From assembly GCA_045546575.1 (NCBI GenBank), contig JAZQDC010000013.1, positions 50,256 to 114,255 of the forward strand: DNA of 64,000 bases, in the 5' to 3' direction. Shown here in pieces: positions 321 through 11,877 of the stretch. The position numbers and the translations under genes were made by a program. This DNA is from Lachnospiraceae bacterium (GTDB lineage Bacteria; Bacillota; Clostridia; Lachnospirales; Lachnospiraceae). Position 1 is the stretch's first letter. The number at the start of each line of letters is the position of its first letter. The notes under the pieces are model-generated. The model ran no database searches. It was not told the origin of the DNA and saw only the letters and a list, made by a program, of their open reading frames with translations.

Positions 321-1613
321 ATGAAACGAAGAGCAATGCAGTGGTTAATCCAATGGAAAGAAGAAACCGAAAGGAAACCGTTGATTCTTAACGGTGCGCG
401 ACAAGTGGGTAAGACGTATTTGCTCCGAGAATTCGGTAGAGAACATTTTGCCGATGTTTTATATGTGAATCTCGAGAGTAATCACGAGATAGCACGCTTA
501 TTTGATGATGATATTACTCCGACACGTCTGCTTCGATATCTAGAGGCTGCTACGGCGCAGAGAATTATTCCGGGGGAGACTCTGATTATATTGGATGAGG
601 TTCAGGCATGCGAGAGGGCAGTTACTTCCCTTAAGTATTTCTGCGAGGAGGCTTCGGAGTATCACGTAGTGGCGGCAGGAAGTCTGTTGGGCGTTGCACT
701 GCATCACGGTGGAGGCTCATTTCCTGTGGGAAAGGTTACGACATATACGTTGCACCCGTTGGATTTCGAAGAGTATCTATGGGCGGTTGGGGAGGAACTT
801 CTGTGGGAAGAGATTCGTGCACATGGTGAGACTTTGACACCGATGCACGAGACCTTGCACCGGAGAGCGTTGGAACGATATCGAGAGTACCTAATCGTAG
901 GCGGAATGCCGGAGGCAGTAAAGCGATATGTACAGAGTGGGTCATACATCGAAGCGTCTCTGGCGCAGTCGGAGATACTGGATAACTATGTGGCAGATAT
1001 GGCAAAGTATGCAACCAATTCGGAAGCGGTGAAGATTCGAGCATGTTACAATTCGATTCCCGCACAGCTTGCCAAGGACAATAAGAAATTTCAGTACAAG
1101 GTAGTTCAGAAGGGCGGTTCCGCCACAATCTTCGGAGCTTCTCTTGAATGGTTGAAGCAAGCGGGTGTAATCCTCGAATGCCAGCGTGTGGAGCAAGGAT
1201 TGCAACCCCTGCCTGCATATGCGGATCAGACCGCATTTAAGGTATATATGTCCGATGTGGGTCTGCTTGTGAACAAATCCGGTATGATGCCCGGCGCAGT
1301 GCTTATGGGAGAGAACAATTTGTACATGGGTGCCATCACGGAGAACTACGTGGCACAGCAGTTAGCGGCTAAGGGTGATGCGCTCTATTATTGGGCACCG
1401 GAGAATTCTCAGGCGGAGCTTGATTTTCTTGTACAGAGGCGGGAGGAAATGTTCTGCATAGAGGTGAAAGCAGGAGAACACGTACGTTCCCGGAGTCTCG
1501 GAATGTTTGTAAAGAAGTACGAACCGACAAGAGCAATACGTCTCTCCACGAAGAATTTCGGCAAGGCGGAGGAAGTGATTTCGGTGCCGTTGTACGCCAC
1601 ATTCTTGCTGTAA
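321..1613 (+). CDS. AAA+ family ATPase with C-terminal DUF4143 (archaeal-ATPase-like ATP-binding protein)
   Basis: Walker A NGARQVGKTYL and Walker B IILDEVQ. The overall architecture is typical of the DUF4143 ATPase family. A paralog lies at 10485-11816. Confidence 0.85.
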   Translation: MKRRAMQWLIQWKEETERKPLILNGARQVGKTYLLREFGREHFADVLYVNLESNHEIARLFDDDITPTRLLRYLEAATAQRIIPGETLIILDEVQACERAVTSLKYFCEEASEYHVVAAGSLLGVALHHGGGSFPVGKVTTYTLHPLDFEEYLWAVGEELLWEEIRAHGETLTPMHETLHRRALERYREYLIVGGMPEAVKRYVQSGSYIEASLAQSEILDNYVADMAKYATNSEAVKIRACYNSIPAQLAKDNKKFQYKVVQKGGSATIFGASLEWLKQAGVILECQRVEQGLQPLPAYADQTAFKVYMSDVGLLVNKSGMMPGAVLMGENNLYMGAITENYVAQQLAAKGDALYYWAPENSQAELDFLVQRREEMFCIEVKAGEHVRSRSLGMFVKKYEPTRAIRLSTKNFGKAEEVISVPLYATFLL

Positions 1614-3348: not shown

Positions 3349-3687
3349 ATGAGTGAACAAGGAGACAAGACTATGGAAGAAATTATGGAAACTTTGATGT
3401 TGGTGTGCTTCGGCATATCTTGGCCTATGAACGTGGCGAAGAATTATAAGGCAAGAACGGCCAAGGGTATGAGCCTATCCTTCACGCTACTGATTATCTC
3501 CGGCTATATTGCGGGAATCGGGGCGAAGCTACTCTCCGGAGCATTTAACTATGTATTGATTGTGTACCTTCTGAACTTGGCAATGGTATCGCTGAATATT
3601 GTGATTTACATCCGCAACCGTCGCTTGGATATGGCAAATGAGGCGGAAGTGGCAGTCGCACATCGGAGATTCGCGCATTTTACGTGA
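3349..3687 (+). CDS. Small 3-TM membrane protein (PQ-loop/SemiSWEET-like or LAB_N-like; uncertain)
   Basis: 112 aa with three hydrophobic helices and a conserved-looking WP...KNYK motif after TM1. Confidence 0.5.
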   Translation: MSEQGDKTMEEIMETLMLVCFGISWPMNVAKNYKARTAKGMSLSFTLLIISGYIAGIGAKLLSGAFNYVLIVYLLNLAMVSLNIVIYIRNRRLDMANEAEVAVAHRRFAHFT

Positions 3688-3918
3688 TGCGCTACTGTGT
3701 TTGAAGTACACCCTAGGACAACATAAGAAATTTTTCGGATAAAACTCCGTGCCACACGAAATCTACTTGACTCGTAGCAAGAAGTGTGATAATTTGGAAT
3801 TAGAGGAGGCTGTTGATTCGATGAAAGTTATGAGTAGAGCCCCTAGTGATGAAGGGTTAGACGCATAGCGTTTCATTTGCAGGTAATGTAAGGGATATAG
3901 TGTTCCGGGGGAAGACAA

Positions 3919-4986
3919 ATGAGAATGAATAACAAAGGAAAATATGTAGTGCTAATATTAGCAAGCCTGTTTCTGTTCGTCGCTTGCAGTGCCAGAGAAC
4001 AGAACCAGCCGACACCGGCCCCTTCGGCTACGCCAACAGTAATGATTCCGAATATAATGATAGAGACACCGACTCCAACGCCGACAATCGATCCGTATTG
4101 TGGAATACGGAAAAATTGGTTGGAGGAGCGATTGGAGGGGTACGAGATTATATATACTGTAACTGGCCGTAGTTCTGTAAAAGAAGACTGGTCCACTGAT
4201 CCACAAGCCACGGGTACACGTGGAGAACTGAATTCGGTGGAAGAACGTATACTAAGTGGAGAGTTGGTGCGTTTGGAGAGTGGCATTGAGCTTGACCTAG
4301 ACGGTAATGGGAGGAGAGAGCGAATTGTTTTTGACGAGAATCAAAAGACAGTGAATTCACCTTTGAAAATCGGGTTCATGGAGCACTTGACTACGGAATA
4401 CGATTGTCTTTTCACCGGAAATATATATGGAGTGTGTCTCGATGAGGGCAAGAGGATTACTCTTCTAATAGAGCAGACAAATACATTTGAGGGCTCTTAC
4501 TCTGATAGGTCTTTTTTATATACGGTTTTCCATTATTATCAGGTTGATGGTATCTACGGATACAAGGTTGAACGTCATTTCTGGTCGGAAGAAATGCCGA
4601 TTCAGCCGGAGACATGGGATACGATGTATGACGGGAAGGCGATAACTTGTGGCAAGGATATTTTCTTGATTGACACTTGGGAAGAAGACGGAGAACAGTA
4701 TCCGGTACTGTTTCATTTTCGTCAGGGCATGCACCCGGTAGGGCGATTTGCAACAGTTCAGACAGATGTATTTTCATACAATGAATATACAAAGGAATTG
4801 GATGCCTACATTCCGGCAGGGAACAAGGTCTATGTAATTGCGCAAAATGATGAATGGTTGTATGTTGCTGATTGCAAGTACACGGCAGAAGCATATGTAA
4901 AGATTAGTGACGACGGTGGCGAAACCATTGTCCACGCACCTCAGAAGGTGACATTAGAGGAAGCGTTGGTATACGAGGAAGAATAA
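3919..4986 (+). CDS. Lipoprotein with Pro/Thr-rich linker and C-terminal SH3b-like domain (paralog A)
   Basis: Signal peptide with lipobox LFVAC, PT-rich linker, and a C-terminal 95 aa identical to paralog B at 6328-7434. Confidence 0.8.
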   Translation: MRMNNKGKYVVLILASLFLFVACSAREQNQPTPAPSATPTVMIPNIMIETPTPTPTIDPYCGIRKNWLEERLEGYEIIYTVTGRSSVKEDWSTDPQATGTRGELNSVEERILSGELVRLESGIELDLDGNGRRERIVFDENQKTVNSPLKIGFMEHLTTEYDCLFTGNIYGVCLDEGKRITLLIEQTNTFEGSYSDRSFLYTVFHYYQVDGIYGYKVERHFWSEEMPIQPETWDTMYDGKAITCGKDIFLIDTWEEDGEQYPVLFHFRQGMHPVGRFATVQTDVFSYNEYTKELDAYIPAGNKVYVIAQNDEWLYVADCKYTAEAYVKISDDGGETIVHAPQKVTLEEALVYEEE

Positions 4987-4992
4987 TTAATA

Positions 4993-5030
4993 GAGGCTTG
5001 TCCCGTAATCGGTGACAAGCCTCTTTTTTT
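4993..5030 (+). terminator. Rho-independent terminator (GAGGCTTGTC...GACAAGCCTC followed by T8)
   Basis: Perfect 10-bp stem followed by a T-run. Duplicated at 7441-7480. Confidence 0.85.
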
Positions 5031-5337
5031 GCTCTGCTAATTGGCATAACTCGCCGTAGAAGATACGGTCGAAAAGCCGTTTCCTTCGGGAAAGAAAGCA
5101 GAATATTTGAACTACTTTGTTTTCGACATGAAAAATGCAATTAATTATTACACAAATATTATATTTTCAAACAAAACAGGGAGGATGATTGACTTGTGAC
5201 TGAAAATATGATAATCTGGATTTGTAAAAAGAAAGAAGTGATTCCGTTGAAGTAGGAAAGTAAGTCGTAAAAGTGTTGCTAATTATGTGAGGGTTTATTG
5301 TCCGAAGAGACAGAAGATAATGGGAGGAGGCAGAATT

Positions 5338-6294
5338 ATGGCTGTAACGAGTTGTACTGTACGTTTTTCTAATGTAGGTGGCGGAACGGGGTCTTTGCCG
5401 ACACACAAAGACTATGTCGATGTAAGTGGATTGAAAGAAAATTCGGTTGTATTTGTGAAAGTGAATGACCTAAGAGATTATCTGGGCTGCACATTGACCG
5501 GAGGCGGCAATGCAATTGTAATCCAGCGAAATGGGCAGATCGTTGAGTTGACGGTGGGGAGTACCGCAATGGAGACGAACATCGGTTATTTTGTGAAGAA
5601 TTACCAGACCGGCGCCATGGTATCATATAGTTTTCAGTAGCAGTCGGTACTTCCGGCCGCTCCCTTTGTACATACGGATGGGTACAAATATGTTCCCGCG
5701 GAGATGGTTGCCATGCAGTTAGGTGCGTTGATTGTAGGAACATATGATTCTAAGTATACTATATATGACTTTTGCGTAAATGGGAGCACTCCTTTGACCG
5801 ATACGAATACCTACATTGTTGGTGGTACGTGGATGACAAATTGGAATACGATAGCAAGCACGTATATTGCACCGCATTTTAAGATTAGCGAGGTGTACAG
5901 TAAGAATAGCAGTTATTCTGGATATCGGCAGTTGAAGATTGCAGTATCCTTGCTGGATTCTTTGGAGGCGGTAAGGCATTATTATAGAGCTGACGAGAGT
6001 TTGACAGTGTCTTGTGCGTTTCGCTCTTGGGGATATAACAAAGGGTTATCAGGAAGTTGGGATAGGAGCTTTCATATGAGAGGGCGTGCCTACGATATTG
6101 ATTCCGATCATCATGGAACAACACTATATTCTGCCGTATATGAGGAATTTTGTAATGGAGAAACTACTCCGGATCATTCCGGTGTGCGTTGCCATACGGG
6201 TTTTGGAGAACAAAAAGAAGTGTGGGCAATTCTAAGGGATATGAGATCGAAACGATGCCACGCAACGGGGTTACGTGGTTACATTTGCAGGTGA
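5338..6294 (+). pseudogene. Peptidase M15 (VanY/L-Ala-D-Glu peptidase-like) with two N-terminal copper-amine-oxidase-N-like cell-wall-binding repeats. Interrupted by a single in-frame TAG at 5638-5640.
   Basis: ORFs 5287-5640 and 5704-6294 are in the same frame, separated only by the TAG. The read-through sequence is continuous domain sequence (...VSYSFQ*QSVLPAAPFVHTDGYKYVP...). The C-terminal part has the M15 metal motif SWGYNKG...HMRGRAYDID...DHH. RBS GGAGGAGG precedes the ATG at 5338. Confidence 0.6.
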
Positions 6295-6327
6295 AGCCGG
6301 AATATAATTCATCTGAGGAGGAGGGAA

Positions 6328-7434
6328 ATGATTATGAAGAAAAGAGGACCTAAGCGAAGACTTGCCATACCGATATTGGTAGCACTACTTTGTCTGACCG
6401 CCTGCAGTGCCAGAGAACAGAACCAACCGACGCCCGAACCTTCTGCCACGCCTACGGTAATGATTCCGAATGTAGTGATAGAGACACCGACTCCAACGCC
6501 AACGCCGACAGCAGACCCGTATTGTGGAATTCGGCGGACCTGGCTGGAAGCGGTTGTGAAAAATGGGTTTACCATTTCCCCACCGGCAATAAGAAGAGGT
6601 GACGGTTCCACGGAAGAGTTGACAGACACTGTTGCGACAGGAGAACGAGAGAATCCAAATTCTATGGAAGAGCAAATTCTGAGTGGAGAGGCCGTGTTGC
6701 TCAAAAGTGGCGTAGAGATTGACCTTGATGGAAACGGGACAAGAGAAGAGATTCGCTTCGGATCTGAAAAGGACAGGGCCGAGTTCTGTGTCGGTCCATT
6801 TTCGTATACAACTAGGTATGGGCTGTGGTTTACGGGAAATGTGTATGGAGTATGTTTGCAAACCCATGACAATCAGTTTCTTGTGGTAGTGGAATACACA
6901 GATATGTATGATGAACAGTGGCCAAAGGGATATATATATTCGATGTACGTATACAGACAACAAGAGCAAGACACTTGCTGGGGTGGCTGGATGTCGGATT
7001 ATGAAACCAGTGAGCTTGTCGGACTCTCCTTCTCGCCGGAGGGATGGGAGGGGAATTGTGAGGGATGCAGTTTCTCTTCTAATGGACAGCAATATATGTA
7101 TATGACATGGCAAGAAGATGTGTCATGGCAAGAGAGCAAATGCTATTATGCACAGATATTTGCGGTTCCCGATGGCATGCAACCGGTAGGGCGATTTGCA
7201 ACAGTTCAGACAGATGTATTTTCATACAATGAATATACAAAGGAATTGGATGCCTACATTCCGGCAGGGAACAAGGTCTATGTAATTGCGCAAAATGATG
7301 AATGGTTGTATGTTGCCGATTGCAAGTACACGGCAGAAGCATATGTAAAGATTAGTGACGACGGTGGCGAAACCATTGTCCACGCACCTCAGAAGGTGAC
7401 ATTAGAGGAAGCGTTGGTATACGAGGAAGAATAA
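6328..7434 (+). CDS. Lipoprotein with PT-rich linker and C-terminal SH3b-like domain (paralog B)
   Basis: Lipobox LTAC. The N-terminal linker and C-terminal 95 aa are near-identical to paralog A; the central about 200 aa are divergent. Confidence 0.8.
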   Translation: MIMKKRGPKRRLAIPILVALLCLTACSAREQNQPTPEPSATPTVMIPNVVIETPTPTPTPTADPYCGIRRTWLEAVVKNGFTISPPAIRRGDGSTEELTDTVATGERENPNSMEEQILSGEAVLLKSGVEIDLDGNGTREEIRFGSEKDRAEFCVGPFSYTTRYGLWFTGNVYGVCLQTHDNQFLVVVEYTDMYDEQWPKGYIYSMYVYRQQEQDTCWGGWMSDYETSELVGLSFSPEGWEGNCEGCSFSSNGQQYMYMTWQEDVSWQESKCYYAQIFAVPDGMQPVGRFATVQTDVFSYNEYTKELDAYIPAGNKVYVIAQNDEWLYVADCKYTAEAYVKISDDGGETIVHAPQKVTLEEALVYEEE

Positions 7435-7440
7435 TTAACA

Positions 7441-7480
7441 GAGGCTTGTCCCGTAATCGGTGACAAGCCTCTTTGTTGTT
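7441..7480 (+). terminator. Rho-independent terminator (duplicate of 4993-5030). Bidirectional with the convergent glucosidase gene.
   Basis: Same stem sequence; it sits between the convergent stops at 7434 and 7482. Confidence 0.8.
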
Positions 7481-7481
7481 T

Positions 7482-9044
7482 CTACACCTGATAGATCAGC
7501 ACCGTCTGCCCTGCAATCTCACCGGTATAGGAACAGCCCTCAACCGTCTGTTCTATACCCTTCACCTGTTGCCAGATGAGCTTCGGCGTGGTTCCTTCCG
7601 GTAGCTCGAAGGTCATCTTCGCCGCATTTGCCGACGGGTTCACGCATACTAAGAGGCGCTCGCCTTCTGCCTCGCGTAAGTAGCATAGCGGGTAGCCCTG
7701 GGACTGAAGGAATTCGATGGTACCGCAGTTGCCCAGAGCCGGATGTGCCTTGCGTAGTGCGATGATGCGCTGAAGCTCGCTTCGAATGGACTGCGGGTCA
7801 TTTGTCTGGGACTCTGCATCCGGGCGGTCAGGGGTCGAATCAACGGGAAGATACAGTGCTTCGGGTTCTGCTGTAGAGAATCCCGCATTTGCACTATTGT
7901 CCCACTGCATGGGCGTGCGAGCACCGGTGCGACCGTAACCGCCTTCCTTAGAGGTCAGGCCTTCTACGTAGCGCATGCCGATTTCGTCCCCGTAGTACAA
8001 AAACGGCGCGCCGGGCATGGTATAGAGAAAGGCAAATGCCAGTTTGATTTCCTCGGGACTGAGGGTTCGCGCCAGGCGGTCCATATCGTGGTTGCCGGAG
8101 GGAATGCAGATAAGTCCTTCCCCGGCGGAAGCCTTCTTGTAGCTCTCCAAGTAACGCTTCACAAATGCACTGCAGTCTCCTCTTCCCCGGGAAGAGAAGT
8201 AAGGCTCCTCACAGCGGAACAGGTCGTTGTAATGAGAGGGACCGAAATGCAGAAGAAAGTCCATGTGGAAACCTGCGGCCAAGGATTTGTCCGGCTCGCC
8301 CCACTCGGATACCATCACCGCATTCGGAAATTCTTCTTCGAGAAATGCGCGAAAATCCTGCCATAACGCAATGGTTCCGGTGCTTGTTTCGTCGTCTCCC
8401 TTTACAAGAGAGCCGGCCATGTCTACGCGGAAACCGTCGCAGCCATTGCTGAGCCAGAAGCGCATGACGTCTTTAATGGCTTCTCTTGTGGCCATGGGAC
8501 CCGGTGCGTCCATAGGTTGCTGCCAGCTCTCCGTAGGATTCAGAAAGCCGTAATTCAGCGCAGGCTGTGTAGAGAAGAAATTCACCGCTGCACTGCCGTC
8601 ACGGTCGCTGATGCCGCGAATGCAGGGGAGATAGGGATCGGTGGAGGTCCAGATGGAATCCGACCAGATGTAGCGGTGGGAATACTCATTTTCCTCTGCT
8701 TTCATGGACTCACGGAACCAAGCATGTTCCACGGAGGTGTGGCCGGGAACCAAGTCCAGAAGCACGTGCATGCCCCGTTTGTGGGCCTCGTCAAACAAAC
8801 GCACCAGGTCTTCGTTGGTGCCGTAGCGGGGTGCCACCAGTTTGTAGTCCCGCACGTCATAGCCCGCATCGCCAAAGGGCGAATCAAAGCAGGGATTCAA
8901 CCAAATGGCGTTGCAACCCAAGTCCTTAATGTAGTCCAATTTCTCGATAATTCCGTTAAAATCCCCGATTCCGTCACCATTTGTGTCGCGAAAGGATTGG
9001 GGATAGATTTCATAAAACACAGCGTCTTTCAACCAAGCATTCAT
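7482..9044 (-). CDS. GH13 alpha-glucosidase / oligo-1,6-glucosidase family
   Basis: MNAWLKDAVFYEIYPQSFRDTNGDGIGDFNGIIEKLDYIKDLGCNAIWLNP is the classic GH13 subfamily N-terminus. RBS AAGGAGG precedes the ATG at 9044. Confidence 0.9.
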   Translation of the reverse strand: MNAWLKDAVFYEIYPQSFRDTNGDGIGDFNGIIEKLDYIKDLGCNAIWLNPCFDSPFGDAGYDVRDYKLVAPRYGTNEDLVRLFDEAHKRGMHVLLDLVPGHTSVEHAWFRESMKAEENEYSHRYIWSDSIWTSTDPYLPCIRGISDRDGSAAVNFFSTQPALNYGFLNPTESWQQPMDAPGPMATREAIKDVMRFWLSNGCDGFRVDMAGSLVKGDDETSTGTIALWQDFRAFLEEEFPNAVMVSEWGEPDKSLAAGFHMDFLLHFGPSHYNDLFRCEEPYFSSRGRGDCSAFVKRYLESYKKASAGEGLICIPSGNHDMDRLARTLSPEEIKLAFAFLYTMPGAPFLYYGDEIGMRYVEGLTSKEGGYGRTGARTPMQWDNSANAGFSTAEPEALYLPVDSTPDRPDAESQTNDPQSIRSELQRIIALRKAHPALGNCGTIEFLQSQGYPLCYLREAEGERLLVCVNPSANAAKMTFELPEGTTPKLIWQQVKGIEQTVEGCSYTGEIAGQTVLIYQV

Positions 9045-10484: not shown

Positions 10485-11816
10485 TTATCCCTTCAGATAT
10501 CGTTTCAGTAGAAATGCACAGAAGTACGGAAATGTATAGACGTTGTCCGAAAAGCCAAGATTGCCGCCGGTTAATTTGATTCCATAGGAAATGTCGGGAT
10601 ATGCGGGGCTGTCAATGAGGGTGCGCAGAGATTTGGACCTTCCGTTGGTGGCCTTCACCTCCACGGGAATAAGGTGGGAAGCGGTGCGTAGGAAGAAATC
10701 TTCCTCCAGTGTGGAATCTTCGCGTTTGAAATAGTACAGGTGATAGCCACTTTTAACAAGTGCTTCGCCTACAATATTTTCATACAGTGCACCCTTGTAT
10801 ATTCCGAGATTCTTGCCGACCCGGAGATCGTCCTGTGCCTCCTCGTCCAGCATAGCCACCAAGAGACCGCTGTCTGCAAAGTAGAGCTTGTATTTGGACT
10901 CATCATAGTTTCCCTTCAGGGGAAGCTCGGGGTAGTTTAGGCAGTAGCAGATGTTGGTCATACCGGCATCGTTTAACCATTCGATGCATCCACGGTAATC
11001 CTTGAAGCGAGCACCGGGGGCAACTTTGGAAATCTGAAACTTCTTGTTGTCTTTGGCCAGCTGAGGCGGAATATGATTGAAGACGTTGAGAATTCGGGTT
11101 TGATCCATGCCTTCTGCGTACTTGCGAATGTCTTCCTTGTAATCCGCAAGGAGCTGACGTTGAGTTGCAAGTGAGCCTTCAAAGGTACCCTTGACGATAT
11201 ATTCACGCACTACGGCGGGCATGCCCCCCAGGATGCAATAGTCCATAAATAAGGAGGAGTACACCGACATCTCGGTTTCGCTGAAAGGAACTAACTGTTT
11301 CATATGTGCCAAAAGAGATTCGATGGCTTCCTCCGAATAGCCCTTGGCCCACAGGAATTCTTCAAAGTCCAGAGAGTACATGTCATAATCGGTCTTGTAA
11401 CCCACGCTGTTGCTTTCGATTCGCTGATAGCCCATTCCCAGCATGGAGCCACTGCAAATGACATCATATCGCCCGTCGATCTTGAAAAACTTAAGAGCAG
11501 TTGCAATCTCGGGAAACTCCTGCAACTCGTCGAAGAAGAACAACGTCTTCGACGGAACAAAATGCTTGGCGGGATCCAGAAGCGAAATGTTTCGCAAGAT
11601 TGCGTCCGGCGAAAACCCTTCCGAAGTAATTGTCTTGTACTTCGGTTCTTCCACAAAGTTGATATAGATAACATTGTCGTAGTTTTGTTCACCGAAACGG
11701 CGCAAGGATTCCGTCTTTCCGACTTGTCTGGGCCCTTTTACAATCAGGGGCTTGCGATCGGGGTCGGCCTTCCATTGAGACAAATACGTATCGATTTTTC
11801 GTTGCAGATATATCAT
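10485..11816 (-). CDS. AAA+ ATPase with DUF4143 (second paralog)
   Basis: Walker A KGPRQVGKTE. Same architecture as 321-1613. RBS GGAGGTG precedes the ATG at 11816. Confidence 0.85.
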   Translation of the reverse strand: MIYLQRKIDTYLSQWKADPDRKPLIVKGPRQVGKTESLRRFGEQNYDNVIYINFVEEPKYKTITSEGFSPDAILRNISLLDPAKHFVPSKTLFFFDELQEFPEIATALKFFKIDGRYDVICSGSMLGMGYQRIESNSVGYKTDYDMYSLDFEEFLWAKGYSEEAIESLLAHMKQLVPFSETEMSVYSSLFMDYCILGGMPAVVREYIVKGTFEGSLATQRQLLADYKEDIRKYAEGMDQTRILNVFNHIPPQLAKDNKKFQISKVAPGARFKDYRGCIEWLNDAGMTNICYCLNYPELPLKGNYDESKYKLYFADSGLLVAMLDEEAQDDLRVGKNLGIYKGALYENIVGEALVKSGYHLYYFKREDSTLEEDFFLRTASHLIPVEVKATNGRSKSLRTLIDSPAYPDISYGIKLTGGNLGFSDNVYTFPYFCAFLLKRYLKG

Positions 11817-11877
11817 ACAATCACCTCCGAGCATCTTCTGTATATAGTATATCTCCGAAATGCCCATAAATCAAGGG

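Follow-up and report, generated by a model that had tools for sequence, protein, structure and literature searches.

The locus lies in a 64-kb window, the term used here for the whole stretch of DNA that was analysed. It consists of two open reading frames (ORFs) on the forward strand, at 5287-5640 and 5704-6294, which share one frame and are separated, as the original prediction had stated and frame-1 translation confirmed, by a lone TAG at 5638-5640. This codon is the only internal stop in frame 1 of 5287-6294 and is flanked by ...AMVSYSFQ on one side and by QSVLPAAPFVHTDGYKYVPAEMVAMQLGAL... (QSVLPAAPF...) on the other. The source record appears to call two coding sequences (CDSs) here, of 100 aa (P0030, 5338-5640) and 193 aa (P0002, 5713-6294). 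Comparison with homologues, and in particular with protein P0001 and the contig that encodes it (L001), points to a single gene predicted to run on the forward strand from ATG 5338 to TAA 6353 and carrying two lesions. It is followed by a lipoprotein gene (lipo2), with an extra paralogue of that gene (lipo1) upstream. The features of the locus are the following.

3919..4986, forward strand: lipo1, extra upstream paralogue of lipo2 (53% aa identity)
4726..5025, forward strand: copy 1 of a direct repeat of 300 nt (99% identity with 7174-7473)
5322..5330, forward strand: Shine-Dalgarno-like GGGAGGAGG, 7 nt 5' of the predicted true start and the same in L001
5338..5637, forward strand: segment A of the putative pseudogene, codons 1-100 (MAVTSC...VSYSFQ), covering the first two thirds of a Cu_amine_oxidN1-like beta domain (from homologue starts and Pfam)
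5638..5640, forward strand: premature stop TAG, formerly TGG (Trp101), by G>A at 5639 (from the DNA alignment with L001 and the homologue column)
5641..6183, forward strand: segment B of the putative pseudogene, frame 1, with the remainder of the Cu_amine_oxidN1-like domain and the greater part of the M15 domain (from Pfam, the 1LBU match and invariant columns)
6184..6191, forward strand: frameshift site GTGCGTTG, net -1 nt, 8 nt against 9 in homologues (from the switch of homology between frames 1 and 3)
6192..6353, forward strand: segment C of the putative pseudogene, frame 3, with the conserved C-terminus PYGFWRTKRSVGNSKGYEIETMPRNGVTWLHLQVKPEYN...KRT and stop (from frame-3 translation against P0001)
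6292..6294, forward strand: out-of-frame TGA that ends the frame-1 reading after 37 non-homologous codons (from alignment)
6334..7434, forward strand: lipo2, intact downstream lipoprotein gene, start ATG 6328 or 6334 (from the ORF and the same gene in relatives)
7174..7473, forward strand: copy 2 of the direct repeat of 300 nt (99% identity with 4726-5025)

Across all six frames of the 64-kb window, there are 17 cases of a single stop with at least 100 open codons on either side, mostly in antisense shadow frames or between neighbouring genes; the bare pattern is thus not rare, and the case for a split gene rests on homology. With the joined sequence as query, 29 matches were found among 5.8 billion proteins, one of which (P0002, 193 aa, 100% identical) is the product of the window's own downstream ORF. 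The other 28 homologues comprise 27 single proteins of 303-370 aa and one fragment (P0024, a 187-aa match to 43% of the query, from a contig of 1.2 kb); NCBI names one homologue as a 'D-Ala-D-Ala carboxypeptidase family metallohydrolase'. The closest relative, P0001 (91% aa identity), is encoded on the 4.5-kb Logan contig L001, where a LysR regulator, a small PQ-loop-like membrane protein, the peptidase and the start of the lipoprotein gene follow one another in an order syntenic with the window, with 87.5% nucleotide identity over the locus. The membrane protein of the window (3349-3687, forward strand, 112 aa), which is conserved 5' of the L001 peptidase, matched the PQ-loop family weakly, short of the gathering score (E=8e-4).

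On the joined protein, Pfam gave one Cu_amine_oxidN1 match (PF07833; residues 27-132, profile positions 9-97 of 108, 24.1 bits) that runs across the stop, with Peptidase_M15_3 downstream; the upstream fragment alone gave a weak Cu_amine_oxidN1 match of 15.6 bits. These matches agree with the architecture proposed in the original prediction, a cell-wall-binding-like (Cu_amine_oxidN1-like) domain followed by an M15 zinc peptidase. The two consecutive cell-wall-binding repeats that had been placed on either side of the stop appear instead to be one interrupted Cu_amine_oxidN1-like domain. The proposal that both ORFs stem from one ancestral gene is likewise borne out, by the match that crosses the stop and by the single-protein organization of 27 of the 28 other homologues. 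Separate orthologous genes, considered in the original prediction as the contrary case, were not what we found: the orthologues are single, and no conserved N-terminus marks off their downstream part.

Residue 101, the position of the stop, lies inside a beta strand (93-104) in the AF2 model of the intact relative P0001. Of 12 full-length homologues in the alignment, 11 have tryptophan in the column of the stop, among them P0001 (SFQWQSVLP). The original prediction had suggested inspecting the orthologous codon, and in the pairwise DNA alignment L001 has TGG (Trp) opposite the TAG of the window, a difference of a single G>A transition at 5639.

Neither limit of the ORF pair as first drawn coincides with that of the predicted gene. 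At the 5' end, the GTG at 5287 gives way to ATG 5338, with which the N-termini of the close homologues P0001 and P0003-P0011 (MAxTxC or MAxxxC) coincide and which is preceded by GGGAGGAGG. At the 3' end, frame 1 is homologous to the relatives until HSG (...PDHSG), ending at 6183, and frame 3 is homologous to them from PYGFW, starting at 6192. The frame-1 tail VRCHTGFGEQKEVWAILRDMRSKRCHATGLRGYICR (...PDHSGVRCHTGFGEQKEVWAILRDMRSKRCHATGLRGYICR and stop) has no counterpart in any homologue aligned. Translation in frame 3 gives GFWRT...GYEIETMPRNGVTWLHLQV as in the family, and the reading that closes with ...ALPYGFWRTKRSVGNSKGYEIETMPRNGVTWLHLQVKPEYNSSEEEGNDYEEKRT at the native stop, TAA 6351-6353, is the family C-terminus, a nearly residue-for-residue match to P0001. 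The end at 6294 is thus not native, a net -1 frameshift within 6184-6191 having moved the C-terminus to frame 3. The size of the lesion was taken from homologues that share the PxH(S/T)G...PYGFW loop: P0006, with HTG-AAK-PYGFW, has 9 nt opposite the 8 nt of the window, and the loops of P0003 and P0005 are equally long. Around 6184-6197, the DNA alignment of the window with L001 contains indels that are not multiples of 3. The PxH(S/T)G motif is also common to more distant homologues, which suggests that the long loop is ancestral and that L001 lost it separately, in frame. This second lesion, missed in the original prediction, strengthens the reading of the locus as a pseudogene.

The catalytic part was assigned to Peptidase_M15_3 (PF08291), which Pfam detected in the downstream fragment with 33.6 bits (cutoff 23.2, E=4.5e-8) and in intact P0001 with 35.0 bits. 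The segment B motif SFHMRGRAYD (6067-6096, frame 1) aligns with SRHMYGHAAD of the Streptomyces albus G zinc D-Ala-D-Ala carboxypeptidase (1LBU; PDB sequence match, E=2e-4), and H246 (codon 6073-6075) and D253 (codon 6094-6096) of its H-x6-D motif (SxHMxGxAxD) are invariant in both homologue alignments (A1 and A3). Enzymes of the M15 and LAS groups have an established H-x6-D...H zinc-ligand architecture. His310 (WLHLQV), near-invariant across 26 homologues (alignment A3), falls in the last beta strand (309-312) of the AF2 model of P0001 (pLDDT 91.4), and its conservation and position, together with this architecture, make it the likely third zinc ligand. The codon of this histidine is found at 6282-6284, in segment C; a C-terminal His in frame with the domain is present in the intact relatives and missing from the frame-1 product of the window. 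The catalytic domain belongs to the LAS fold. The ancestral gene is accordingly classified, on sequence grounds, as a putative member of the Peptidase_M15_3/M15A family, of which the window copy would be a disabled member. Its product is a predicted zinc peptidoglycan peptidase of about 335 aa, with an N-terminal Cu_amine_oxidN1-like beta domain and a catalytic domain of the LAS fold (M15A, Peptidase_M15_3). The lack of a signal peptide, as originally noted, is valid for the Lachnospiraceae subclade of the window and not for the distant homologues P0014-P0029, which carry classical signal peptides.

We consider it highly probable that 5338-6353 is a recently inactivated, ordinary pseudogene of a chromosomal putative zinc cell-wall peptidase. 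The change of TGG (Trp101) to TAG at 5638-5640 would halt translation partway through a beta strand in the N-terminal domain, and the net 1-nt deletion within 6184-6191 would put the last ~54 codons, including that of the WLHLQV histidine, out of frame. No working enzyme would be expected from the 100-aa N-terminal fragment or from a 193-aa fragment initiated internally. The homology, the TGG codon of the orthologue, the second reading frame and the ordinary use of TAG as a terminator were observed directly. After in-silico repair of both lesions, dN/dS against L001 was 0.20 (dS 0.40), and the window copy keeps the residue of each column that is invariant in the family alignment, which suggests that most of the divergence took place under purifying selection and that inactivation was recent. 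Among the three options originally offered for the in-frame stop, a recent nonsense mutation that created a pseudogene fits best, given the TGG of the orthologue, the Trp column and the frameshift.

A second of those options, that the gene is intact in the organism and that both lesions are artefacts of assembly or consensus calling (possibly a MAG consensus), appears quite unlikely to us. It draws on the single observation of the truncated products: when five start variants were looked up in the clusters of a collection of 15 billion proteins, the 100-aa and 193-aa products were each found once, both on one 114,255-nt NCBI contig. Exact-product look-ups of P0002, P0030 and lipo2 returned no independent copy, and DNA patterns of 32-38 nt around the TAG had no match beyond the source contig in collections of genome and metagenome contigs. 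The otherwise perfect conservation of the sequence at invariant positions would also be compatible with an intact gene, and the 99%-identical 300-nt repeats that bracket it are of a kind with which assemblers can struggle; both lesions, however, lie more than 600 nt from these repeats. The lesions are moreover of two kinds, a substitution and an indel, within 1 kb, and the 44 remaining long ORFs in the 64-kb window look uninterrupted at the level of the ORF map, which is unlike the outcome of a uniformly error-prone assembly. The indel site GTGCGTTG contains no homopolymer longer than 2.

We regard as very improbable a gene fission in which a binding-domain protein and a separate catalytic protein starting at ATG 5713 would both be functional. 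The two CDSs of the source record and a GGAG 9 nt upstream of ATG 5713 are compatible with it, but this GGAG is part of conserved coding sequence (AEMVAMQ) and is also present in the intact relatives. No homologue is split in this way, the 27 full-length single proteins being accompanied only by the 187-aa match on its 1.2-kb contig; the break interrupts a beta strand within one domain, and the downstream fragment is deprived of the conserved C-terminal His strand by the frameshift.

Programmed recoding, in which a suppressor tRNA, Pyl or context-dependent read-through of the TAG would yield a full-length protein, is hardly credible. In its favour, no other stop separates the frame-1 ORFs, and the domain extends past the TAG. 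Against it, relatives have an ordinary Trp codon at the site, TAG is the genuine stop of 14 ORFs out of the 45 longest that do not overlap in the 64-kb window, ARAGORN found no tRNA gene (0 genes) in the window, no recoding signal was found, Rfam had no match at gathering score in the whole window (a chance-level match only, E=0.39, in 4950-5400), and the frameshift would still remove the conserved C-terminus from the product. Read-through of the TAG alone could not restore the enzyme, since the C-terminal His is lost to the frameshift; the original option of read-through or suppression is thus unsupported. Genome-wide reassignment of TAG was rejected on the same count of TAG-terminated ORFs.

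The context of the gene is chromosomal, with housekeeping neighbours. The neighbours in the window and related loci encode a LysR regulator, a PQ-loop protein, a signal peptidase, an alanine symporter, an NAD synthetase and an amylase-like product, and no phage or lysis-cassette context was seen in the window or in five related loci (including L001, L002, L003 and L014). A prophage or endolysin gene was rejected from these neighbourhoods. The 'phage-type endolysin' of the original prediction is not sustained by such neighbours or by a lipoprotein partner in place of a lysis cassette; only the catalytic domain is endolysin-like, PHROG 894 'endolysin' matching it with E=1e-9.

Other observations concern the surroundings of the gene. 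The leader of ~110 nt 5' of the peptidase start (5228-5337, forward strand) is 100% identical between the window and L001, against an average of 87.5% for the loci, and has no counterpart 5' of the L002, L003 and L014 orthologues. A riboswitch or leader RNA was rejected for this segment, for which no Rfam family was matched and the predicted fold was no better than those of shuffled sequences (z=-0.8). Two paralogous AAA_14/DUF4143 ATPase genes were also found, one in segment 288-1729 (ORF 321-1613, forward strand) and the other at 10485-11867 (reverse strand); the first copy lies in a ~1.4-kb segment that is missing from L001 and may be a mobile or variable insertion.

The native 3' end of the peptidase gene and the start of lipo2 overlap, and the lipo2 product contains, besides a PT-rich linker, the lipobox ...LCLTAC. 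In the Lachnospiraceae subclade of the window, the gene for the peptidase without signal peptide was in every case followed by a lipoprotein gene, overlapping or within about 30 nt (window, L001, L002, L003 and L014). The partner lipoprotein has 351-377 aa and is encoded at 9012-10067 in L002, 8997-10130 in L003, 7021-8076 in L014 and 4370-4498 in L001 (gene start only); it had no Pfam, NCBIfam or PHROG match. No lipoprotein neighbour was seen in the distant loci L004-L010, some of which are short. The upstream paralogue lipo1 lies within a block (3655-5074) that is missing from the syntenic L001. Each copy of the 300-nt repeat comprises the 3' end of a lipoprotein gene and 39 nt beyond, the two copies bracketing the pseudogene, and the 99% identity of the last 300 nt in otherwise divergent paralogues points to recent gene conversion or recombination. 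A tandem duplication of peptidase and lipoprotein genes together was rejected, since blastn of 3600-5100 against 5101-7600 found similarity between the lipoprotein genes only and no second peptidase remnant.

This conserved pairing of peptidase and lipoprotein is the only mildly novel aspect of the locus. It is conceivable, if rather unlikely, that the pair forms an undescribed two-component cell-wall module in which the lipoprotein would, for example, recruit, export or restrain the peptidase. Were this so, the loss of the peptidase here, with the lipoprotein duplicated and partly homogenised, would point to a lipoprotein function independent of the enzyme. The strain would have lost a conserved peptidase and kept and duplicated its lipoprotein partner, a hint that it can do without the peptidase but not without the partner. 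For annotation, two CDSs have apparently been called where one probable pseudogene spans 5338-6353, and surveys of stop-codon recoding should not count the TAG of the window.

The parent family resembles the 1LBU enzyme in the motif FRSW..N...S.HM.G.A.D and in the C-terminal His strand. It differs from M15A and 1LBU in an insertion of ~45 residues between the HxxxxxxD motif and the last His, because of which Pfam aligns only positions 2-85 of the 108 of the Peptidase_M15_3 profile. Its N-terminal partner is a Cu_amine_oxidN1-like domain, whereas that of 1LBU is PG_binding_1, and the window copy, unlike 1LBU, is broken. With the phage M15 endolysins (PHROG 894; L-alanyl-D-glutamate peptidases such as Ply500 and the T5 endolysin), the family shares the catalytic fold, the modular combination of binding and catalytic domains and, in the window subclade, the lack of a signal peptide. 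It is distinguished from them by the order of its domains, with the binding domain first and the catalytic domain second, and by the conserved lipoprotein gene, rather than a holin gene, with which it is paired. A literature search for the combination of Cu_amine_oxidN1 and M15 domains returned only surveys of phage endolysins and unrelated papers. As to the lesions, the locus has what is seen in ordinary bacterial pseudogenes arising by nonsense and frameshift mutation, namely a stop made by one transition, one small indel, intact orthologues and a split annotation; nothing notable sets it apart from these, the case in the window being a young one.
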